Shown: positions 2 through 51,624, counted from the stretch's first letter. The stretch is DNA of 64,000 nt from Candidatus Micrarchaeia archaeon (GCA_038880755.1 JAVZRC010000002.1:31821-95820); one strand, 5' to 3'. A program made the numbers and translations. The notes: a model not told the origin generated them from the sequence alone.

Positions 2-1687
2 TTAAGATATGTTTTTAATGCTAAAACTCCAAGTAATATTGAAGTTTTAAAAATCCCTGGAAATAGACAAGAATTGGTTTTAAAGTTAAGTACTACTGAA
101 AAACCATTCGCTTTAATAAAAATCGGTGATATTTCCAGCTGGCTAAAAGATAAACTCGAAGGATATGAAATAAATGAAAGTTTTGATAATCAAAGCTATT
201 TTTTACGAATCAATAGTGATGATTCAGATATAAATATCTTAATGGGTTCTCGTTCTTTTTATGAAGGTTGGGATTCTAACAGACCAAATATTCTTTTATT
301 TATAAATATTGGAGTTGGAAATGATGCTAAAAAATTTGTTCTTCAATCAGTGGGCAGGGGCGTACGAATAGAACCACAAAAAAATCAGAGAAAGCGACTT
401 CAGAATTTATACAACGATAAAGAAATAGAAGAGGAAGTTTTTAAGAAAGTCAAAGATCTGATCATGCCGATCGAGACTTTGTATGTTTTTGGAACCAATG
501 CCAAAAATTTAAACGAAATAATCAAAACTTTAAAAGAAGAAAAACAAGATATGACTTTAGGTAATGAGTTTATTATAAATCCTGAAGCAAAAGATAAAAC
601 ACTTTTAATACCGATTTATAAAACAGCAGAAAGAATTTATTCTGAAGAAAGTGAGCTGCAAAAATATTTCATTAGCAAAGAAGATTTTGAAATTACAAAA
701 CGTTACTATGAGTATTTAACTGATAAAATTATCTTGATCAAATATAATTGTGACGTAAATATTTTGAAGCAAGCAAAGAAAAGTTTTGCTGAAAAAGAGA
801 AATACTATAATTTTAGTGAGACTAATTCTCTTTTTGAGCCAGAGTTAATTCTTGAACGAATTCTTGGATATCTGGGAGTTAAACCTAAAGAGTTTGATAA
901 ATTCAAGGAATTGGAAAATGAAATCGTACATTTCAAAAAGATTAGATTTAGTGATGGCAAAAAATATGAGGAAATTAAAACGAAGATTGATCTTATAAGG
1001 CAATATCCAGAAAAGAAAAAAGAATTACAAAACAATTATGGAAAGATTCCCCTTGAAGAATATGGGAAACAATTAAAGTTATTTGAAGATGCTGAAAAAT
1101 TCGAAGTAAAAGATCAAAAAATTAAAATCAAGTACTTAGCAAATCATTATTATCTACCAGTTATAATCTCAGAGACAGAAAAAATTGAGTATCTCAATCA
1201 CATTATTAATGTAAAAAGCGAAGTAAAATTTATTGAAGAATTGGAAAAATATCTAGATAAACCAGATAATGTATTTAAGCAATTTGACTGGTGGATGTTT
1301 TCAAAACTTGACCAAACACTCGATGAAGTTTTCATTCCGTATTACAATAAAAAAGAAAATAAAATTACTCATTTTAAACCAGACTTTATCTTTTGGGCGC
1401 AAAAGGGTAAAAGATACTTAATTTTGTTTGTTGACCCTAAAGGAACTGAATACGCAGATGGCTATAGGAAGATTGAGGGGTATTCAAAGATATTTGAAAT
1501 CGATGTTAACGGGCAAAAACAAAGCAGAGAATTTTCATATAATGGATTTACCATAAGCACGAAACTACTACTATTTAATCAAGGTGGTATAGCAAATGTT
1601 TTAGAACAATATAAGCGATACTGGTTTGACAACTTCAATGATTTTGCTGATAAGGTAAAATCTTTCTTTATTACAGAGAATATATAA
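2..1687 (+). CDS. Type III restriction Res-like helicase/endonuclease, C-terminal part (5' end lies off the window)
   Basis: The frame is open from nt 2, with no stop upstream of the TTG at 74. SF2 helicase motif VI 'QSVGRGVRIEP' follows 'GWDSNRPNILLF'. C-terminal PD-(D/E)xK-like motif 'FKPDFIFW...ILFVDPKGTEY'. Confidence 0.6.
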   Translation, partial: LRYVFNAKTPSNIEVLKIPGNRQELVLKLSTTEKPFALIKIGDISSWLKDKLEGYEINESFDNQSYFLRINSDDSDINILMGSRSFYEGWDSNRPNILLFINIGVGNDAKKFVLQSVGRGVRIEPQKNQRKRLQNLYNDKEIEEEVFKKVKDLIMPIETLYVFGTNAKNLNEIIKTLKEEKQDMTLGNEFIINPEAKDKTLLIPIYKTAERIYSEESELQKYFISKEDFEITKRYYEYLTDKIILIKYNCDVNILKQAKKSFAEKEKYYNFSETNSLFEPELILERILGYLGVKPKEFDKFKELENEIVHFKKIRFSDGKKYEEIKTKIDLIRQYPEKKKELQNNYGKIPLEEYGKQLKLFEDAEKFEVKDQKIKIKYLANHYYLPVIISETEKIEYLNHIINVKSEVKFIEELEKYLDKPDNVFKQFDWWMFSKLDQTLDEVFIPYYNKKENKITHFKPDFIFWAQKGKRYLILFVDPKGTEYADGYRKIEGYSKIFEIDVNGQKQSREFSYNGFTISTKLLLFNQGGIANVLEQYKRYWFDNFNDFADKVKSFFITENI

Positions 1688-3725: not shown

Positions 3726-4787
3726 TTATTTTGAGGTTATTCTGCATTCAGAGCGATATTCACAAGATTTACACTTCCATTGTTTTGGTGGAATGGGATT
3801 CATTTTATTTGTGAGTAGTTTATCCATAGTGTTTAGAGTATGCACAGCATGCCTTTCATCTGTTTTTTGTTCAATAATTATTGATCTTTCATTTACTTTG
3901 TTCATTAACTTTATTTGAACTTTAATCTTTGGCTTTCCAAATAGATAGGAATAAATATTTGCCTGCGCGATTGCCATTGGTTTTATGAAATGACAAAGAA
4001 ATTCATTTGCTGTTGTTTTAAATTCATAACAGAAGTCAGGCCCTATTCCATCTGGTGCTCCTTCAATTATATAGTTTTTCCAATTGAAATGATATCTAAA
4101 AGTTGGATAATGCTCTGCTCTATTTAATTCTTCAAATATCCCTCTTTCTAATGGATTATCATATATAGTTTTTCTATTAGCAGTATCGTTTGACATTTCT
4201 GCTATTGCTAAATAAGGTATATTATTTTTTTTAAGTTCATTCTCTAATTTTATTAATGCAGATCTATAATTCTTACATTTATTTAGAATTTCTATAAAAT
4301 TATTAGTCAGAATCTTTTTTAATGGGTAATCGAATTTATTTATATCTGATTCATCTGGTATTATCGTTATCGCTCTTCCATGTATGTTTATGGTTGTATA
4401 ATCCTCCATAAATTGTGACAATATTTTATGCACCTCTTTTTTAGATAGTTGGCCGTATTTTTCAATATCTTCTTTATAAGATGCGAATATATTTTTCTCA
4501 TTGTTTCTAATCTTGAAAATCATTTGTTGATGACACCAGTACATACGTGCAATATCTGCAACTGCAACAAAACAGATTTGGTCTTTTTTAATGGATAATT
4601 TTTTCTTTTCTCTGATCATTTCTTTCTCTAAAATTTTATTATCAATTATATTCTCAGAGATTGGCAATTTCTTCATTGACCTGCTCTCTTCAGTCTTGCT
4701 TCCTATAGAAAATAAATCCTGATCTTTATTATCAATTTTTATTCTTTTTATTTTATCAGGCTTCTTCATATCCTTACACCAATTCAT
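3726..4787 (-). CDS. Cas4-family (DUF83/RecB-like) PD-(D/E)xK nuclease with a 4-Cys cluster, not CRISPR-associated here
   Basis: N-terminal Cys 'YWCHQQ'. Nuclease motifs 'GAPDGI', 'YEFKT' (ExK) and 'QANIY' (QxxxY). C-terminal 'CKSCEYRSEC' (CX2CX5C), typical of the Cas4/AddB Fe-S nuclease fold. Confidence 0.65.
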   Translation of the reverse strand: MNWCKDMKKPDKIKRIKIDNKDQDLFSIGSKTEESRSMKKLPISENIIDNKILEKEMIREKKKLSIKKDQICFVAVADIARMYWCHQQMIFKIRNNEKNIFASYKEDIEKYGQLSKKEVHKILSQFMEDYTTINIHGRAITIIPDESDINKFDYPLKKILTNNFIEILNKCKNYRSALIKLENELKKNNIPYLAIAEMSNDTANRKTIYDNPLERGIFEELNRAEHYPTFRYHFNWKNYIIEGAPDGIGPDFCYEFKTTANEFLCHFIKPMAIAQANIYSYLFGKPKIKVQIKLMNKVNERSIIIEQKTDERHAVHTLNTMDKLLTNKMNPIPPKQWKCKSCEYRSECRITSK

Positions 4788-7928: not shown

Positions 7929-8723
7929 TTAATCGTTTCGTTTTTCATTTACTAGTTCTTCGTACATTTTTTCATGTTGTGGAAAATTTCTTTTTGTCCA
8001 ATTTATAATCCCATTTTTTTCAGTATCAGATAATTGTCGTAATTCGGTTGAAGTATACTCTTTAAGCACTAAATTAGAAATATCTGTCATTAATGCCTTT
8101 TCAAATTCGATCAATTCTTTTACATATTTAATTGCATCTTCATAATAAAGATCTATTTCGTCTTTCTTTCGATATTCTCTATATTCCTCTTTATTAAAGT
8201 ATAAACCATATGCTGCATGGGATAATGCCATTAAAGTTATATGTTTTTCAGTTATGCTCCGAGCATCATCTGGATAGATTTTCAATCTTTCTTCAACTGC
8301 TTGTAATTTCTTTAACAGAAGTTCTTTTGATTCTTGATATGTCTTCTTTTCTACAGCCATATAATGATATGTAGTATTTTCTAAATCTAAAGCTACCGGA
8401 TTTCCCGTTTTTTTGTATACTGAATCAAAAATTTTTTTAGCAATTTCCAGACTCTCAATAGTGCCATTTCTATTCCAATAATTAACAAGAATTTCGTATC
8501 CTTTCTTTAACAACTTATCTTCTTCATTAGCAGCATATTCTGGTGGCGGTCTTGCAAGAATAGGAAGAGCACCCACCTTTTTTGCAGGACTGAAAAGCAA
8601 TGAAGCACCTAACAGACCTGCAGCTAATGGCTTCTTCATTCTCTGCCATAAAGAAGGTTTCTTCTCTTCCTTCTTTTCTTCTTTCTTTATTATCTTCTCC
8701 TCTCTTTCTGTCATAAATATCAT
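7929..8723 (-). CDS. Membrane-anchored/secreted helical protein, paralog B
   Basis: Same N-terminus ('MIFMTEREEKIIKKEEKKEEKKPSLWQRMKKPLAAGLLGASLL') and overall similarity to 6802-7599 and 10365-11168. Confidence 0.7.
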   Translation of the reverse strand: MIFMTEREEKIIKKEEKKEEKKPSLWQRMKKPLAAGLLGASLLFSPAKKVGALPILARPPPEYAANEEDKLLKKGYEILVNYWNRNGTIESLEIAKKIFDSVYKKTGNPVALDLENTTYHYMAVEKKTYQESKELLLKKLQAVEERLKIYPDDARSITEKHITLMALSHAAYGLYFNKEEYREYRKKDEIDLYYEDAIKYVKELIEFEKALMTDISNLVLKEYTSTELRQLSDTEKNGIINWTKRNFPQHEKMYEELVNEKRND

Positions 8724-8735
8724 TCGCTGTTTAGG

Positions 8736-8743
8736 TATTTAAA
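8736..8743 (-). promoter_or_regulatory. TATA box (TTTAAATA) of paralog B
   Basis: Conserved position within the 158-nt 5' module (8593-8750). Confidence 0.5.
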
Positions 8744-8896
8744 GGTAACTCTTTCTTGGCTTTGGAGAAGTCCTGTGATGAGAAAATAGGATTTCCACAT
8801 CTTATTATTTAGCTTTTAAACAAGTTTTTATTTTCTAAATCGAAACATTTATAATCTATGCTAATTATATTTATCATATAATAGAAAATAGGTTGA

Positions 8897-10180
8897 TTGC
8901 ATATGCCAAACATAAAAGAAGAAATGATAAATTTAAACCCTTGGTGGAAAGGCGAATTTAAATTATCTTTTAAAGATAGAGAGATCTATAGAAAAATTCA
9001 GAAATTCATACCTCTCCCGCAAATAATAGCTTTAACTGGGCTTAGGAGAGTTGGAAAAACAACTATACTTTTTAAGCTTGCTGAAGATGCAATAAACCAA
9101 GGGCTAGATCCTAAAAACATTCTTTATTTCTCTTTTGATGAATTCAAAGCGATCGAAATTAAAAAGATTGTTAGCGAATATGAAGAATTATTTGGAAAAA
9201 ACTTAAGAAATGGTAAATTTCTTTTTCTTTTTGATGAAATACAAAAGTTAGATGATTGGGAAAATCAATTAAAAGCATTTTATGATGTATATGGTAAAAA
9301 TGCAAAGATAATAATATCTGGTTCTGAATCGCTGTTTATAAAAAAGAAATCTAAAGAAACCCTTGCAGGAAGATTATTTGAATTTAAGGTAGAGCCCCTC
9401 TCATTCAAAGAATTTCTAAATTTTAAACAATTGAAATTTGAACCTGTTGAACTATATGAAAGAGAATTAAAAGAACAGTTTAAAGAATTTACTTTAACAT
9501 ATGGTTTTCCTGAGCTAGTAGGCATAAAGGATAAAGAGATCATTAAAAAATACGTTGTTGAAAGCATCGTAGAAAAAGTAATTTACAAAGATATACCCTC
9601 CCTAATGAAAGTAAAAGACATATCTATTATTGCGTCTCTTTTAAATACAATCATGGAGGAACCGGGACAACTTGCCGAAGTTTCTGAGTTTGCAAATAAT
9701 TTGAAAATCTCAAGATATACAACGGCTTCCTATCTTAGATATCTTGAAGATTCATTTCTAATTAGGAAACTCTATAACTTCTCTCGAAGCAGAAGAAAAG
9801 TGGAAAGAAAACTAAAGAAATATTATCCTACTATCATCTCTCCCAGTTTACTTTTCCGTAATGATGAACTTTCGCAATCAAAAGTATTTGAATGGATGAT
9901 TGTAAATCAACTTAGAGCTGAATTCTTTTGGCGAGATGCGTACAAAAATGAAGTGGACATTATCCTATTAAATGAGCAACCCACCCCTATTGAAGTGAAG
10001 TATGGAAAAATTGAATTCGAAGGCTTATCTACTTTCATGGAAAAATTCAATGTTAAGAGAGGTTATATTGTTTCTTTAGATACAGAAGAAAAGAAAAATA
10101 TCGGTGAGAAGGCAGTAGATGTAATTCCAGCCTTTAAATTCTTGTTAAGGCAAAGCACAGAAATTTATGATCAAGAATAG
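8897..10180 (+). CDS. AAA+ ATPase of the COG1373 / DUF4143-type family
   Basis: N-terminal 'NPWW'. Walker A 'GLRRVGKTT'. Walker B 'LFLFDEIQ'. The likely real start is the ATG at 8903. Confidence 0.65.
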   Translation: MHMPNIKEEMINLNPWWKGEFKLSFKDREIYRKIQKFIPLPQIIALTGLRRVGKTTILFKLAEDAINQGLDPKNILYFSFDEFKAIEIKKIVSEYEELFGKNLRNGKFLFLFDEIQKLDDWENQLKAFYDVYGKNAKIIISGSESLFIKKKSKETLAGRLFEFKVEPLSFKEFLNFKQLKFEPVELYERELKEQFKEFTLTYGFPELVGIKDKEIIKKYVVESIVEKVIYKDIPSLMKVKDISIIASLLNTIMEEPGQLAEVSEFANNLKISRYTTASYLRYLEDSFLIRKLYNFSRSRRKVERKLKKYYPTIISPSLLFRNDELSQSKVFEWMIVNQLRAEFFWRDAYKNEVDIILLNEQPTPIEVKYGKIEFEGLSTFMEKFNVKRGYIVSLDTEEKKNIGEKAVDVIPAFKFLLRQSTEIYDQE

Positions 10181-10186
10181 AACAGT

Positions 10187-10339
10187 TCATAAAAGAGTGG
10201 TTGATTCATTGAGGAGTGAAGTCATGTGTTGATGAGGAAGAGAAGGAGTGGTGGTAGCAGAGGCTGGTTTAGTATGATTATATTCTGGCTTTTGGGACCT
10301 CCCAATATGATCCCTATTCGAAACATGAAATAAGATCAT
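10187..10339 (-). pseudogene. 50-aa remnant of the coiled-coil gene 5' end (third copy), cut 7 nt from the ATPase stop
   Basis: My own translation gives 'MILFHVSNRDHIGRSQKPEYNHTKPASATTTPSLPHQHMTSLLNESTTLL*'. It matches the N-terminal module and stops where the full-length gene continues with 'SPEAMKAY'. Confidence 0.6.
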
Positions 10340-10364
10340 AAATCACTTTTTCTAAAAGACATTT

Positions 10365-11168
10365 TTAATCCTTTCTTTTTTCTTTTAATAATTCCTCATA
10401 CATGTTTTCGTTTTCTACGAGGTACTTTTTTAAGTGCTTTATAGCATCATCTCTTTCCGTATCATCAATTTCAATCGGTCCTGTTGAAGTATACACATTG
10501 AATTTTGAATTAGATAATAATTTATATAAATATTCTTTTTCAAATTCAATCAGTTTTTTTCCATATTCAATTGCATCTTTGTAATAAAGATCAATTTCCT
10601 TTTCATTTCGATATTTTCTGTATTCCTCTTTATTAAAGTATAAACCATGTGCTGCGTGAAATAATGCCTCTAAAGTTTCTTCTTTTTTATCTAAAGCACG
10701 AATATCATCTGGATATGATTTTAATCTTTCTTCAACTGATTTCAATTTATTTAACAATCTCGCCTTTGACTGATAATAATTTCTGTCTTCTATAGCGAGA
10801 TAATGATCTGTAACATGATTCAAATCTAATGCAACCGGGTTTCCTGTCTTTTTGTATATAGATTCGAAAATTTTTTTGGCAATTTCTAAACTTTCAGGAG
10901 TACCGTCACCATACCAATAGTTATTGAGGATTTCCAATCCTTTCTTTAATAGCTTATCTTTTTCCACTTCAGCAGCGGCATAAGGTGGGGGCGGTCTTGC
11001 AAGAAGATATATAGCATCCACCCTCTTTGCAGAACTGAAAAGTAATGAAGCACCTAACAGACCTGCAGCTAATGGTTTTTTCATTCTCTGCCATAATGAA
11101 GGCTTCTTTTCTTCCTTCTTTTCTCCTTTCTTTATTATCTTCTCCTCTCTTTCTGCCATAAATATCAT
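10365..11168 (-). CDS. Membrane-anchored/secreted helical protein, paralog C
   Basis: N-terminal 45 aa identical to paralog A. Conserved blocks 'GDGTP.SLEIAKKIFES.YKKTGNP' and 'HGLYFNKE.YR.YR.EKEIDLYY.DAI.YGK.LIEFEKE'. Confidence 0.7.
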   Translation of the reverse strand: MIFMAEREEKIIKKGEKKEEKKPSLWQRMKKPLAAGLLGASLLFSSAKRVDAIYLLARPPPPYAAAEVEKDKLLKKGLEILNNYWYGDGTPESLEIAKKIFESIYKKTGNPVALDLNHVTDHYLAIEDRNYYQSKARLLNKLKSVEERLKSYPDDIRALDKKEETLEALFHAAHGLYFNKEEYRKYRNEKEIDLYYKDAIEYGKKLIEFEKEYLYKLLSNSKFNVYTSTGPIEIDDTERDDAIKHLKKYLVENENMYEELLKEKRKD

Positions 11169-46923: not shown

Positions 46924-46996
46924 GGGGCCGTGGGCTAACCTGGTACGCTGCCAGCTTCGGGAGCTGGTGATTCGAGTTCAAATCTCGACGGCCCCA
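46924..46996 (+). tRNA. tRNA-Pro (anticodon CGG)
   Basis: Hand-folded cloverleaf. Acceptor GGGGCCG/CGGCCCC plus discriminator A. Anticodon stem CCAGC/GCTGG with loop TTCGGGA. T-arm TCGAG-TTCAAAT-CTCGA. No encoded CCA. Confidence 0.9.
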
Positions 46997-47023: not shown

Positions 47024-50000
47024 TTAATCATAATTTTCTAATTCTTCTAAAAATGTATCTGTATCTTCCTCGTCTCCAATCAAATCAATCCTATCGAATT
47101 TCTTTATTGGAATGAGTGGAGAATCAGTGAAATCTATGTCTTTTCCATCTTTATCTTTAATGAAAAGGTAATCGCCCTTTGCACCGATGACATATAGATT
47201 TTTACCTCGTATCCATTCGCCTATTGTTTTATATACATTATCTATCAAAGTTCTGAAAGAGAATTGGCCTTCTGGGTTTATATGATATACTGCATTAAAA
47301 ACCTCTTTATAATGTATTGCACGCATATATTGGTTGAACAAAAATACCATGTTCTCTGCGGATATCTTATCAGTCATATCTGAGTATTCAGACGTTGCTA
47401 ATATTGAAGCAATCTTATTCTTTATCTCATTAAGACGTTCAAATTGTGATTTGAATCTATCTAATTTCTCTTTTGATGACTCTTCTAAAGCAGACTCTAA
47501 ATCAGTCGGAAGGTTGTAGAGCTTTATTATGTCGCTGTTTTCTTTTTCGAATAAATTAACGAAATTAAATGTAAGCTGATTATCTTCTCTTCTTGTGCTC
47601 CCTTTTCTTATGTGATTCTTTATCTTTCTGCTTGCCTTTTTGTCTTTTGTCTTTAATGATATGTAAAAAGATCTAAACTTATCCTTAACAGTCTCATAGG
47701 CAGCATAATACTGTCTAACTAAAGATTGCTTGTCAAGCTCTTTTTTACTTATAGTAGTTGTTGCCGTACCATCTGCCTTTGCAACAGCTACATAGTACTT
47801 CTGCATCATGCTTGTTGCTTCGTCTTTAGATATATTAAGTACTCTCAAAATTTCTCTGTAAATATCCATTTCTCTTCTATATAAGTAGTAATCAACATGT
47901 ATATTCTGTCTCATGAAATATTTTGGATATTGAAGTTCAGCTATTCTTATTATAGGATCATAATGTAATGTACTGAAATATAAATTCCATTCTGGTTGAG
48001 ATGGAAAGAATGTTGATGACAACATAAGTTCTAATGGAATGTATGTCATATAAGCATCATAGTATAATCCTGGCTTTACTTGAGGTATTCCTTCGTCCAT
48101 TAACTGCCTTTTCATATATTCATTAAGTCTCTTTTTGAAAATCTGCCTTTCATCCTCTCTCTTTTTTTGTTTGTAGCCGTAATGCAACTGAGTATGGCGG
48201 ACCTTCCATTCACGGAGATGAAATATTTCATTCATTGAAGTTGGAGAGAAGGCCACATCTGTTATTGGAACATGAGATACCATGGCAGCTGCTTTATACA
48301 AAAGTTTAAGTGTAGGCTCAAAATCAAATATCTCTATCAATGGGTCTATGTCGTGAGTAGAATAAAAGTCAAGCTTGTACTCTGCGTCCTTGTTTCCATT
48401 TATCGCCATTATCTCTAATTCTTTAAGTTCATCATGTGTAGCTATTTTATGAAATTCTGAATCCATAACTGTCTTAATGTACATCCGCTTTTTCTGCAAA
48501 TATATGAAATTTGCAACATCTGCAAGCTTATGTGAAAGATCAAAAGGTTTCGTCTTAAGATATGGGAACCAAACAGAAGCCAAACGATGAGTATCAAGGA
48601 TTTCCTGCGCTGCAAGAGATATCTTCTGGTAGAAATCCCTTCTCCAGAGCCTTGGTTCCTTTTTCTTCACTGCTATGTCAAAACGTTCGGTTTTATTCTT
48701 TCTTGCGCTATCTCTTATTTCTGAAAGATCATAAGGTATAACGTGGCCTACTATCCTATAAGGTTTTTCCTGCTTGATAAATTTAATCACTGCATTAAGT
48801 AATTCATATTCAGTATCAAAATAAAGAACTGTGAATCCATTTATTTCTTTTGTTTCATTATTGATTGCAGTATTTCTGAGCTTGAAATATAATCGTTTTA
48901 TAGAACCGTCTTCTTTTCTTAGATGGATCATTACTCTAGAAATCTGCTCTTTATACTTGTCCTCAAGTAGATTCACATCTCCAGACTGATTCGTTTTCAT
49001 TACCATTTTCTTAGTCAATTCCTGAATTTTTTCATTTATCTCGGATGGATCCATTGTTGAATTCTTATTTGCAAGTTCTGCTTGCAGCTCTGAAATTTCC
49101 TGCATTATCTTTCTTTCTTCTTCTGTTTTCCACATTGGCTTCTCAATGTCTATGAAACATGTTGAAAGTGACTTCCAACAAATATAAGGAATTCTTTCAT
49201 CTGTCAAAAGCATTCCTTCAGGTTCTGTTCCTCCTTTCACATATGGATTTACTTCGCTTTTAGGCTGCAACACTAATTCATATTGCCCGTTATCCCAATT
49301 GTAAATTACTGAATTCTGGCTATTTAAAGATTTTGCAGCAAGATCAAGAGAGAACCTAAGGCTTCCAAATTTCATTCCAATTTCTTCTAATTCTCTCGCA
49401 AAACTTTCATTTGACTTAAAAATTCTATATACGATAGGGTGCTTATCTCTTATTATCCCATTATTCTCTGTTAAGAAATCTGAAATCTTATGACCTTCTA
49501 AATAAAAATGCCGAAAATCATTGACTGCTCTAGTTATCTTTGCGGATAATACTTTATCATGGTGTTTTGAATCTTTTCCATAAAATTTAGAGATCTTATC
49601 AATCAAAATAGAATCTAATTCATTAAGCTCCTTAATCTTAGAAAAGATGTATTCTAGTTCGCTTGAAATTTTTACTTTTTTATACATCCAGCCCAACTGT
49701 CTCCTTATCGACTTGTTAATGTTTTTTGTTTGGAAGCCTAGCTTTTCAAAATTATCCAATATCCTTTTTTCGCATGGGACTGTTGCATTAACAACTGATG
49801 ATTTGATATTGTCAATAATGAATTCAAAATCAGGAAATTTTTTTTCTAATTCTGTTTTTTTATCTCTATCTGCATAAGAGAGATAACACGTAATCTTGTA
49901 TGTCTTGTCCATGGGTCTGTTCAATTTCTCAAGATAAGCATAGAACGAATCGTAATTATAAAAAGGACTTGTTGAAATAGTAATTGGATGATCGATATAA

Positions 50001-50281
50001 ACAGTAACAGTCTCAGGAGAGGACAAAGACCATCTCCTTAAATTCACAATCAGACGATTCCTTTTTGACTCGTACTCCTCAAAACCAACATGGCTAACAA
50101 ACCAGAAAGGCTGTATCTTTTTCTTCTCCTCTTCTTCTGAAAATAAATGAAGCTCATGCTTTGCATCGAAAGAGGGTTCTTCATCTAAAGGAGTATCATT
50201 CCAAAACGAATCATCCTCTTGCGAACCAATAGATTGATTTCTAATAATATGGTTATTCTCTTTTAAGTTATTATTATGCAT
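47024..50281 (-). CDS. Highly divergent family-B DNA polymerase-like protein (DEDDy exonuclease motifs clear, polymerase motifs degenerate)
   Basis: ExoI 'CFIDIEKP'. ExoII 'IVGHVIPYDLSEI'. ExoIII 'YSTHDIDPLIEIF'. Possible motif A 'GLYYDAYMTYIP'. Motif C position reads 'YVIGAKGDYLFI' instead of YGDTDS. ~370-aa N-terminal extension. Confidence 0.5.
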   Translation of the reverse strand: MHNNNLKENNHIIRNQSIGSQEDDSFWNDTPLDEEPSFDAKHELHLFSEEEEKKKIQPFWFVSHVGFEEYESKRNRLIVNLRRWSLSSPETVTVYIDHPITISTSPFYNYDSFYAYLEKLNRPMDKTYKITCYLSYADRDKKTELEKKFPDFEFIIDNIKSSVVNATVPCEKRILDNFEKLGFQTKNINKSIRRQLGWMYKKVKISSELEYIFSKIKELNELDSILIDKISKFYGKDSKHHDKVLSAKITRAVNDFRHFYLEGHKISDFLTENNGIIRDKHPIVYRIFKSNESFARELEEIGMKFGSLRFSLDLAAKSLNSQNSVIYNWDNGQYELVLQPKSEVNPYVKGGTEPEGMLLTDERIPYICWKSLSTCFIDIEKPMWKTEEERKIMQEISELQAELANKNSTMDPSEINEKIQELTKKMVMKTNQSGDVNLLEDKYKEQISRVMIHLRKEDGSIKRLYFKLRNTAINNETKEINGFTVLYFDTEYELLNAVIKFIKQEKPYRIVGHVIPYDLSEIRDSARKNKTERFDIAVKKKEPRLWRRDFYQKISLAAQEILDTHRLASVWFPYLKTKPFDLSHKLADVANFIYLQKKRMYIKTVMDSEFHKIATHDELKELEIMAINGNKDAEYKLDFYSTHDIDPLIEIFDFEPTLKLLYKAAAMVSHVPITDVAFSPTSMNEIFHLREWKVRHTQLHYGYKQKKREDERQIFKKRLNEYMKRQLMDEGIPQVKPGLYYDAYMTYIPLELMLSSTFFPSQPEWNLYFSTLHYDPIIRIAELQYPKYFMRQNIHVDYYLYRREMDIYREILRVLNISKDEATSMMQKYYVAVAKADGTATTTISKKELDKQSLVRQYYAAYETVKDKFRSFYISLKTKDKKASRKIKNHIRKGSTRREDNQLTFNFVNLFEKENSDIIKLYNLPTDLESALEESSKEKLDRFKSQFERLNEIKNKIASILATSEYSDMTDKISAENMVFLFNQYMRAIHYKEVFNAVYHINPEGQFSFRTLIDNVYKTIGEWIRGKNLYVIGAKGDYLFIKDKDGKDIDFTDSPLIPIKKFDRIDLIGDEEDTDTFLEELENYD

Positions 50282-50449
50282 GATATTTTGACATTTTTTT
50301 TATATATAAATGTTTCATTTTCCAGCGAAAAAGATGTCTAAAACCTCTAAATTAATGACGCTACTTTTATCCAGATAATGATAATATTTTAAACTTAAAA
50401 TTGCATATATGTTTCACTATTCGACTTCGATTACTTAGATTAATCAACT

Positions 50450-50535
50450 GCAGGGGTGGCAGAGCCTGGTCAAATGCGCCAGCTTCAGGGGTTGGTGCCG
50501 TAGTGGCTACGTGGGTTCAAATCCCACCCCCTGCA
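50450..50535 (+). tRNA. tRNA-Leu (anticodon CAG)
   Basis: Acceptor GCAGGGG/CCCCTGC plus A. D-arm GCA-GAGCCTGGTCAAA-TGC. Anticodon stem CCAGC/GTTGG with loop TTCAGGG. Long variable arm TGCCGTAGTGGCTAC. T-arm GTGGG-TTCAAAT-CCCAC. Confidence 0.9.
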
Positions 50536-50550
50536 CTAAGGGTGGATAAA

Positions 50551-51624
50551 ATGACATACGAAGAGATCCTAAAAATTAATATCTTTGGAAATACAGTATT
50601 TGATTATTTAGTTGCAATGGGAATTTTTCTACTTACGTGGCTAGTTATATTTGTAATAAAAAAAATAATTCTTGTACAACTAAAAGAGATAGCAAAAAGA
50701 ACGAAAACTACTCTTGATGACAAGATGATAGAATATGTAAACAGTATCAATATTTTCTTCTATATTGTGCTTTCTATATATGTAAGTACAACATTTTTAG
50801 TTATGCCAACTATAATACATACCTTGCTTTACTATTCTTTGCTTATAACTGTCGCATATTATGTTGTTAAATTCTCACACAAAATAATAGAGCATTTATT
50901 TGCAAAAATAGAACTGGAGCAAACAAAAAGATATCATGAAACAGACTTCTCACAACTGCACCTGATGAGAGATGTGGTAAAGTACATAATATGGTTCATT
51001 GCAATTCTATTATTCCTATCTAACCTTGGTTTTGATATAACTGCATTGATAGCTGGTTTAGGTATTGGAGGTATTGCGATTGCATTCGCACTTCAGAATG
51101 TGCTGGCAGATATTTTTGCTTCATTCTCTATTTATTTTGACAAGCCTTTCAAGAAAGGAGATTTCATAGTAGTCGGAAATGAGAGCGGTACGATTAAAAA
51201 GATAGGGTTAAAGACTACAAGGATAGAATCTCTTCAAGGTGAAGAAATAATAGTTGCAAACAAAATGCTTGTTGATTCAATAATACATAATTACAAAAAA
51301 ATGAATTATAGAAGAATAAACTTCACATTTGGAGTAACATATGAAACTCCTTCAAATAAACTTGAAAAAATACCAAATATAATAAAAGAAATAATAGAAA
51401 GCAGAAAACATGAAGGAAAGCAAATAGCAAAAGTTGAAAGAGTTTTCTTCAAAAGCTTTGGTGACTCTGCATTGATTTACGAAGTACTTTACACGATTTC
51501 ATCAAATGAGTATAACGTGTATGCAAAAATACAAAATGAAATAAATATTGAAATATTAAAGAGATTTAAGAAAGAAGGAATAGAAATGGCATATCCAACA
51601 AGAACTGTATATATCAAAAAATAA
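50551..51624 (+). CDS. MscS-family mechanosensitive channel
   Basis: 'GIGGIAIAFALQNVLADIFASFSIYFDKPFKKGDFI...GTIKKIGLKTTRIESLQGEEIIVANK' is the conserved MscS TM3/beta-domain block. The start is set at ATG 50551 because the track ORF's N-terminus runs through tRNA-Leu. Confidence 0.85.
   Translation: MTYEEILKINIFGNTVFDYLVAMGIFLLTWLVIFVIKKIILVQLKEIAKRTKTTLDDKMIEYVNSINIFFYIVLSIYVSTTFLVMPTIIHTLLYYSLLITVAYYVVKFSHKIIEHLFAKIELEQTKRYHETDFSQLHLMRDVVKYIIWFIAILLFLSNLGFDITALIAGLGIGGIAIAFALQNVLADIFASFSIYFDKPFKKGDFIVVGNESGTIKKIGLKTTRIESLQGEEIIVANKMLVDSIIHNYKKMNYRRINFTFGVTYETPSNKLEKIPNIIKEIIESRKHEGKQIAKVERVFFKSFGDSALIYEVLYTISSNEYNVYAKIQNEINIEILKRFKKEGIEMAYPTRTVYIKK

Follow-up and report, generated by a model that had tools for sequence, protein, structure and literature searches.

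A PolB-derived protein of DPANN archaea with a conserved exonuclease site and a putatively inactive polymerase half

Background

Archaeal PolB2 (Dpo2) has been described as an "inactivated" group of family-B DNA polymerases (PolBs) (Rogozin 2008, PMC2527604; Kazlauskas 2020, PMC7544198; Feng 2022, PMC8764526). In PolB2 of archaea and of the bacterial G2 group, ExoI lacks conservation and ExoIII is absent (PMC7544198), and the enzyme acts as a translesion-synthesis extender. Outside of family B, prokaryotic PolX enzymes are known in which an inactivated polymerase site is combined with an active PHP 3'-5' exonuclease (cited in PMC12926913). In their survey of archaeal PolBs, Kazlauskas et al. 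2020 distinguished groups B1-B10, none of which has the architecture described here (PMC7544198). The present work concerns a gene for a PolB-derived protein on the minus strand of a 64,000-nt stretch of DNA from a Candidatus Micrarchaeia archaeon (GCA_038880755.1, JAVZRC010000002.1:31821-95820); this whole stretch is referred to below as the window. The conserved residues and predicted structure of the protein suggest that it is probably a polymerase-dead, exonuclease-active PolB derivative that serves as an accessory paralog, and a literature search found no published description of its family.

Gene and Domain Architecture

The open reading frame (ORF) at 47024..50281 encodes 1085 amino acids (aa), according to both the ORF list and the translation. 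Every peptide string quoted in the original prediction for this locus was found in that translation, including FIDIE (residues 376-380), GHVIPYDLSEI (512-522) and YSTHDIDP (640-647) in the exonuclease domain, and GLYYDAYMTYIP (738-749) and YVIGAKGDYLFI (1030-1041) in the polymerase half. When the protein was modelled by AlphaFold2 with the family alignment, a mean predicted local distance difference test (pLDDT) score of 84.6 and a predicted template modelling (pTM) score of 0.84 were obtained, and the top Foldseek matches to the whole model were all family-B polymerases. Likewise, VIA-align gave a Z-score of 21.8 to the Tgo, KOD and 9 degrees N enzymes, with ~500 residues aligned, and similar values for Pol delta and Pol epsilon. 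The structural mappings from VIA are residue ranges rather than residue-level superpositions. The resulting layout is as follows.

47024..50281, minus strand: whole gene for the PolB-derived protein of 1085 aa (stop codon at 47024-47026; top PDB matches of the AlphaFold2 model all family-B polymerases).
50114..50281, minus strand: residues 1-56, predicted disordered N-terminal tail, poorly conserved within the genus as well (pLDDT <50 for residues 1-46; N-termini of congeners differ).
49172..50113, minus strand: residues 57-370, PolB N-terminal domain with a helical insertion of ~110 aa at 207-319 (VIA alignment, AlphaFold2 model).
48212..49171, minus strand: residues 371-690, DEDDy 3'-5' exonuclease domain (PF03104, hhalign, invariant residues, substitution rates).
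49142..49150, minus strand: ExoI, D378-I-E380, in the family motif DIEKPLWK (invariant, 41/41).
48728..48730, minus strand: ExoII, Asp518 of a Y-D pair (invariant, 41/41).
48350..48364, minus strand: ExoIII, Y640-x-x-x-D644 (invariant, 41/41).
47072..48211, minus strand: residues 691-1070, half resembling a degenerate palm and fingers, with a large inserted helical region and no thumb following it (VIA, weak fold matches, substitution rates).
48029..48070, minus strand: putative motif A remnant, G738...Y747-I-P-L-E751, with Tyr747 at the position of the canonical catalytic Asp (sliding profile test).
47168..47179, minus strand: putative motif C remnant, K1035-G-D1037-Y1038, on the tip of the beta-hairpin after helix 1009-1026 (secondary structure, VIA, register test).
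47027..47071, minus strand: residues 1071-1085, short acidic C-terminal tail of low confidence (pLDDT <50; without an LF motif).

The original prediction had described a ~370-aa N-terminal extension ahead of ExoI, and this did not survive the structural comparison. Because residues 61..1073 of the model map to residues 1..609 of Tgo in the VIA alignment, most of this region corresponds to the ordinary N-terminal domain of PolB, and residue 1 of the Tgo and KOD PolBs aligns with model residues ~57-61. The additional material would thus consist of a disordered tail of ~46-56 aa and the insertion at ~207-319, which is missing from the shorter family members (~825 aa).

The exonuclease half is the most recognizable part of the protein. 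In a Pfam search, the PolB exonuclease domain PF03104 was the sole domain detected, at 29.4 bits against a cut-off of 23, while the NCBIfam, PHROGs and PADLOC profiles gave zero matches for the 1085-aa protein. In an alignment of 41 family members with a mean identity of only 24%, the sole invariant columns (41/41) were D378, E380, D518, D563, Y640, D644, L586 and K612. Comparison of the family with canonical PolBs of related DPANN genomes by hhalign aligned the ExoII-ExoIII region at 96% probability, with the match restricted to the exonuclease domain, and the only match of the family hidden Markov model (HMM) among PDB sequences was the exonuclease domain of Pol delta. The ratio of nonsynonymous to synonymous substitution rates (dN/dS), calculated against orthologs that are 92-93% identical, was lowest for the exonuclease region of the gene, at 0.05-0.07. 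Judged by its residues, the exonuclease catalytic site is intact throughout the family, with all DEDDy positions kept.

The Polymerase-Like Half

Polymerase motifs A and C were placed by a register test in which windows of the family profile were slid, ungapped, along the entire canonical PolB profile. The best fit of the segment 736-746 (rank 1 of 779 offsets, z 4.8) was to the canonical strand whose last residue is the motif A Asp, as was that of its 7-residue core, where G-x-Y-x-N-V meets the canonical G-I-Y-E-x-I or G-I-Y-E-N-I (rank 1 of 783, z 5.3), and that of an 18-residue window (rank 1 of 772). Since this register ranks first, the canonical motif A Asp falls on Y747 and the Leu of SLYPS on E751. 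The motif A Asp binds both metals in all PolBs, and the Leu of SLYPS lines the nucleotide pocket of the canonical enzymes. At position 747, 90% of the family has Tyr and the sister clade has either Tyr or Phe; at position 751, 95% of the family has Glu. The catalytic Asp of motif A (DxxSLYPS) therefore appears to have been replaced by Tyr747.

For motif C, the model places a helix at 1009-1026 ahead of a hairpin at 1029-1043, in the same helix-hairpin order as in canonical enzymes. Residues 1012-1016 map to Tgo 520 in the VIA alignment, which would put D1037 within ~3 residues of the second Asp of DTD, and the register with D1037 as this second Asp ranked 2 of 773 offsets. D1037 is Asp in 36 of the 41 sequences (88%) and N, F or R in the other five, and Tyr is found at 1038 in 39 of 41. 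In that register, the position of the first Asp of motif C is occupied by Lys or Arg, so that K/R-G-D stands in place of D-T-D, and motif C thus seems to keep at most one Asp. The ungapped reading of motif C in the original prediction, with Lys at the first Asp and an acidic residue, D1037, at the second, was reproduced with this second-ranked register.

Motif B proved to be less straightforward. The statement that no clear KxxxNSxYG is present holds insofar as none can be recognized at the expected helix, and needs amending insofar as a conserved K-x-x-x-R-S-x-Y-[VI] occurs at 866-874. Since this string is part of a ~150-aa helical insertion that separates motif A from the fingers, it is no more than a candidate counterpart of motif B. 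Neither 866-874 nor a second weak candidate at 987-1000 (RA...F.A.YG) aligned with canonical motif B in the sliding test. Elsewhere in the C-terminal half (C-half), conserved basic residues occur at K706, K717, R718, R885, R987 and R1060, in addition to K866 and R870 of the string itself, and conserved aromatic residues at Y747, Y873, F995 and Y1038.

In Tgo and KOD, the thumb occupies approximately residues 590-773. The structural alignments of the present protein stop at Tgo ~590-609, and only 48 aa remain after the motif C hairpin; many family members finish ~10 aa past the last palm strand. As the alignment to Tgo ends at ~609, the protein would stop where the thumb begins, and we infer from the model that the thumb domain is absent.

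By profile methods, the C-half has diverged beyond recognition. PF00136 was not detected at E<=1 in the 1085-aa protein or in eight relatives, searches of PDB sequences with phmmer and with the family HMM gave zero matches for the polymerase half, and hhalign restricted to the C-halves of the family and of canonical PolBs gave a probability of 0.4% and no alignment. The C-half folded alone was modelled with a pLDDT of 82.4. When this model was scanned with VIA, independently of Foldseek, against 48,161 chains, the top match was the palm/fingers region of a Pyrobaculum PolB (5mdn_B 391-601), with 143 aligned residues spanning positions 14..380 of the C-half model. Additionally, the feature neighbours of the C-half in the ESM Atlas all carry PF00136, at scores of 0.87-0.89 that lie under the tool's 0.9 level. 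The C-half is likely to derive from the palm and fingers, given that it is collinear with a genuine PolB module of N-terminal and exonuclease domains, that three weak signals point the same way, and that the register test places motif A.

Whatever its origin, the C-half is not decaying. The dN/dS was 0.07-0.11 for the palm segment around motif A, 0.12-0.14 for residues 776-880, 0.10-0.19 for residues 881-1026 and 0.04-0.08 for the motif C segment, relative to 0.10-0.12 for the gene as a whole. The whole gene is under purifying selection, and the values of 0.04-0.19 across the C-half indicate that this part of the protein is functional and maintained.

Other DNA Polymerases and C-Terminal Tails

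The source genome (685 kb in 17 contigs, 83% complete) encodes a canonical PolB on another contig, as a 789-aa ORF with matches to PF00136 (223.6 bits) and PF03104 (104.9 bits) and with Exo I-III and motifs A, B and C all intact. The same genome also encodes the DP2 subunit of PolD. Each of four further carrier genomes likewise possesses a canonical PolB (PF00136 >200 bits) and PolD DP2. The presence of a canonical PolB and PolD in the same genome makes the gene a third, accessory paralog rather than a replicase; the notion of an extremely divergent replicative PolB, one of two readings in the original prediction, consequently found no support in the genome search, in either the source genome or the four other carriers.

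The length of PolD DP2 varies among the carriers. Its open frame spans 1703 aa in the source genome (G000; contig C4:~10823-11620, L004) and 1655 aa in G405, compared with ~1170-1190 aa in three Woesearchaeota carriers, and the longer frames could reflect an intein or another insertion.

Of the 28 C-terminal family tails of at least 8 aa, half (14/28) carry a Leu-Phe (LF) motif, often as Q-G-x-L-F at or near the C-terminus; shuffling predicts 3.1 such tails, and none of 2,000 shuffles reached 14. At their C-termini, the canonical PolBs encoded by these DPANN genomes have PCNA-interacting protein (PIP) boxes, one of which is a bare K-Q-T-T-L-F, and the Q-x-x-L-F peptide of the family tails resembles these PCNA-binding tails. 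The excess of LF tails over the shuffled expectation, together with the PIP boxes of the canonical enzymes, suggests PCNA binding, and hence tethering, for a part of the family. The 1085-aa protein itself has no LF motif in its tail, and the PIP box Qxx[LIMV]xx[FYW][FYW] was not found at either of its termini.

Distribution, Descent and Genomic Setting

An exhaustive phmmer search of 1.84 billion representative sequences returned 68 clusters, 32 of them at E<=1e-30. The family is confined to DPANN archaea, where it is present in one genus of Micrarchaeota and in Woesearchaeota and Pacearchaeota. Relatives deposited at NCBI are labelled "hypothetical protein" or "3'-5' exonuclease, partial", and near-identical protein records derive from hot-spring metagenomes. 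Full-length orthologs were found in all five of the other genomes of the genus (5/5), and ~396 genomes sampled from the phylum's other 154 genera gave no match at E<=1e-20. Outside of the genus, all named relatives belong to Woesearchaeota, Pacearchaeota or "Nanoarchaeota", one of them being encoded in the complete genome of archaeon GW2011_AR20. Among 401 sampled genomes of the Woese/Pacearchaeota phylum, 27 (including G647, which is unpublished) contain a match at E<=1e-20; four of these are strong and full-length, and ~23 belong to a divergent sister clade. Zero relatives were detected in the viral contigs scanned.

In the sister clade (L041-L048, from Woese/Pacearchaeota genomes G409, G665, G636, G406, G560 and G666), the proteins are 900-1070 aa long and retain Exo I-III, except for L048, which has Glu at the position of the ExoII Asp. 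In place of the motif C Asp they have P, T, Q, N or K (acidic in 0/6), an acidic residue stands at the E751 position in 2/6, and PF00136 was undetected in all of the sister-clade proteins. These proteins carry ~200 extra C-terminal residues, a segment that is possibly a thumb remnant.

In a quick maximum-likelihood tree (IQ-TREE, LG+G4) rooted on the sister clade, the Micrarchaeota sequences formed a single clade with a Shimodaira-Hasegawa-like approximate likelihood ratio (SH-aLRT) support of 99, nested within a group in which every named sequence comes from Woese/Pacearchaeota. The topology is consistent with one ancient transfer into the ancestor of the genus, followed by vertical descent. 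A foreign origin, which the original prediction had entertained, may therefore be upheld only in the sense of an ancient transfer among DPANN archaea, and not as a recent insertion.

Not all copies of the gene are intact. In two Woesearchaeota groundwater metagenome-assembled genomes (MAGs), an in-frame TAG (L025:8784-8786 and the same place in L026) replaces the conserved Tyr of the P-Y-L motif in the exonuclease domain and splits the gene into ORFs of 424 aa and 378 aa that share one frame. Two in-frame stops interrupt the copy in G773, and that in G003 is fragmented. Such copies may be pseudogenes, cases of read-through or assembly errors; given that some copies carry in-frame stops, the gene would be dispensable in some lineages.

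In the window, the gene stands between two tRNA genes, as the original prediction had noted and as the ORF list and ARAGORN bore out, with tRNA-Pro 27 nt from its stop codon. The flanking features are as follows.

46924..46996, plus strand: tRNA-Pro(CGG), convergent with the 3' end of the gene (ARAGORN).
50450..50536, plus strand: tRNA-Leu(CAG), divergent from the 5' end of the gene (ARAGORN).
50300..50311, minus strand: A/T-rich TATA-like element ~19-30 nt upstream of the ATG (read from the sequence).

The TATA-like element is a possible archaeal promoter for a leaderless mRNA, the signal being a weak one in a genome of 33% GC. The PolB-like gene is the single gene between the two tRNAs, and its neighbours have housekeeping functions, including arginyl-tRNA synthetase, a polyprenyl synthase and an MscS channel. 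There is no integrase, Cas1 or terminal-protein gene among the neighbours, and no att-like repeats were found around the gene. The AT-richness remarked on in the original prediction is not special, as the GC content of the gene (0.33) equals that of the window (range 0.26-0.37); it is a property of the genome and no sign of foreign DNA. The tRNA-Leu/gene/tRNA-Pro arrangement is the same in the four congeners with enough flanking sequence, down to 54% protein identity, and the tRNA bracket is thus a stable feature of the genus and no integration scar. Taken as a whole, the matching GC content, the lack of an integrase or att repeat and the shared tRNA flanks rule against a recent insertion, and the idea that the tRNA genes are an integration signature had to be abandoned.

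Outside of the genus, family members are found beside core genes, including those for S6e, eIF2-gamma and aIF5B. In GW2011_AR20 (L021, CP010426; family member at 7986-10874), the gene adjoins a calcineurin-like metallophosphoesterase and a TatD DNase, and Orc1/Cdc6 lies two genes away. This single case hints at a link of the family to a replication origin or to nucleases.

Two further observations concern other genes of the window. The MscS-like gene is listed as a TTG-start ORF (50401-51624, plus strand) that overlaps tRNA-Leu, and translation more probably begins just past the tRNA, with the ATG at ~50552. A 353-aa ORF at 3726-4787 on the minus strand, ~43 kb from the PolB-like gene, has a C-terminal match to the Cas4-like family PF01930 at 24.5 bits, and a second Cas4-like gene of the genome is located on contig C1. 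In the source genome and in 10 carrier genomes, PF01930 matches are never adjacent to the PolB-like gene; the nearest is ~5 kb and six genes away (AR19), and the remaining matches are 34-170 kb away or on other contigs.

Proposed Function and Alternative Explanations

Given the conserved proofreading site, the Tyr at the key synthesis residue and the lack of a thumb, the protein is most likely a stand-alone DNA-end-trimming enzyme. The second reading of the original prediction, an exonuclease-proficient and polymerase-dead paralog, is accordingly the best-supported one, with the DEDDy residues in 41/41, Tyr747 in 90%, no thumb and no similarity to polymerase profiles; its exonuclease part stands on the conserved site itself, and its polymerase part on a loss of DNA synthesis that we infer from the altered motifs. 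In the mechanism proposed here, the invariant DEDDy site would hydrolyse a 3' terminus by a two-metal reaction. The remodelled palm/fingers scaffold, with its conserved Lys/Arg and aromatic residues, would probably still bind DNA and would present the 3' end to the exonuclease site, much as a PolB does in its editing mode, without the ability to extend it. The likely cellular role would be extrinsic proofreading or 3'-end clean-up in replication or repair.

Several observations weigh against this interpretation. The C-half alone gave no significant Foldseek match (best E 0.17, with PolBs at E 0.3-0.6), and the VIA match to 5mdn_B, at a Z-score of 5.9, is tied with generic helical bundles; as the C-half has no significant fold match by itself, homology to the palm leans on collinearity and weak matches. 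In the register test for the motif C segment, the top rank of the 773 offsets went to a rival, the canonical KxY hairpin (G-A-K-K-K-Y-A-L-V). Moreover, E751, D1037, Y1038, R870/S871/Y873 and R1060 combine strong conservation with low dN/dS, which indicates a functional and possibly catalytic site in the C-half. Finally, a degenerate motif C is an imperfect guide to activity, in that PolB2/Dpo2 and piPolB do polymerise, even though their single motif C Asp had led to the prediction or expectation of an impaired enzyme (PMC7544198, section 15; PMC8764526).

These points bear most directly on the possibility that the protein is an active, non-canonical DNA (or RNA) polymerase, in which Glu751 and Asp1037 form a substitute metal pair and the helical insertion, with its K-x-x-x-R-S-x-Y motif, replaces the fingers and thumb. 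Such an enzyme would account for the conservation of E751 (95%) and D1037 (88%), for the retention of K866, R870, S871, Y873, Y1038 and R1060, and for a dN/dS of only 0.04-0.11 in the two palm segments, and the one-Asp enzymes just mentioned offer a precedent. It is nonetheless difficult to reconcile with the Tyr that 90% of the family has at the motif A Asp, with N, F or R at D1037 in 5/41, with a sister clade that lacks an acidic residue at the motif C position in 6/6 and has one at the E751 position in only 2/6, or with the missing thumb and the lack of any PF00136 or hhalign signal, and we regard it as unlikely, if far from negligible. A related proposal, to which we assign a somewhat smaller chance, is that the site has been rebuilt, with Tyr747 in place of the motif A Asp, Glu751 and Asp1037 as a new metal site and the inserted K-x-x-x-R-S-x-Y helical domain binding the substrate. 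If true, the family would form a new class of PolB derivative, and the rebuilt site would represent new chemistry coupled to the intact exonuclease, such as that of a distributive nucleotidyl transferase without a thumb, or an RNA-dependent activity.

Other explanations fare worse. A non-enzymatic scaffold or adaptor that makes protein contacts in the replisome, like the C-terminal half of eukaryotic Pol epsilon, would fit a degenerate polymerase half, PIP-like tails in half of the family and an Orc1/Cdc6 gene two genes away in AR20, yet it leaves unexplained why 41/41 members keep all five catalytic residues of the DEDDy site and why dN/dS is lowest in the exonuclease domain, when the inactive Pol epsilon C-terminal half and PolB2 have lost their exonuclease residues (PMC7544198); this explanation is improbable. 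More improbable still is that the gene is cargo of a mobile element of the pPolB, piPolB or casposon type, recently integrated between two tRNA genes. The tRNA genes on both sides, a patchy distribution (one of 155 genera sampled in the phylum) and the nesting of the Micrarchaeota clade among Woese/Pacearchaeota sequences would all be expected of such cargo, but the GC content is that of the window, a single gene lies between the tRNAs without an integrase, Cas1, terminal-protein gene or att-like repeat, four congeners, with protein identities as low as 54%, have identical flanks, and viral contigs, PHROGs and PADLOC gave zero matches while other lineages place the gene in core-gene contexts. 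The candidate is thus largely refuted by its housekeeping context, the absence of att sites and integrase, and the conserved flanks. As for a single, highly divergent replicative PolB of the lineage, conservation with the same neighbours across the genus is all that speaks for it; the canonical PolB and PolD DP2 encoded in the source genome and in the four other carriers tested refute it, the 154 further genera sampled in the phylum yielded no copy of the gene, and some Woesearchaeota copies bear in-frame stops, so that we attach practically no credence to this explanation.

Comparison with Known Systems

Relative to canonical archaeal PolBs (Tgo, KOD, 9 degrees N and Pfu, as well as Pyrobaculum 5mdn), the polymerase-dead paralog proposed here has the same N-terminal and DEDDy exonuclease domains (Z 21.8; PF03104), the same collinear order of N-terminal domain, exonuclease and palm, a recognizable motif A strand, and a helix followed by a beta-hairpin at the putative motif C. 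It differs in that PF00136 is not detected, Tyr appears to replace the Asp of motif A, K/R-G-D appears to take the place of D-T-D, and motif B is unrecognizable in its expected place; in addition, the fingers are set off from motif A by a helical insertion of ~150 aa, the N-terminal domain contains another of ~110 aa, and neither a thumb nor a PIP box is present. With PolB2 (Dpo2), the protein shares the status of an accessory PolB paralog with a deviant polymerase site and, in the putative motif C, at most one Asp, but the pattern is reversed, since here it is Exo I-III that are invariant and the polymerase side that is degenerate. The C-terminal half of Pol epsilon is likewise PolB-derived and retained under selection with inactivated polymerase motifs; that module, however, has lost both of its sites and is fused to an active PolB, whereas the present protein stands alone with an intact exonuclease site. 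Unlike the PolBs of mobile elements (pPolB, piPolB and those of casposons), it occurs in a chromosomal housekeeping context and has no relatives in the viral contigs scanned. PolX follows the same evolutionary logic, in that only the nuclease function has been kept, although its fold and family are unrelated (family X, with a PHP domain).

The inactivated PolBs described so far, namely PolB2, the exonuclease domains of Pol alpha and Pol zeta, and the Pol epsilon C-terminal half, have lost the exonuclease site or both sites. An exonuclease-only, thumbless PolB maintained by purifying selection in genome-reduced DPANN archaea would represent the opposite trajectory. If its exonuclease acts in trans, with many members possibly tethered to PCNA, the protein would be the archaeal counterpart of an independent proofreader, or of an enzyme for 3'-end clean-up, that is built from a polymerase, and would add an extra component to the minimal replication and repair toolkit of DPANN. 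As the present case also shows, PolB surveys keyed to the polymerase domain miss whole families.

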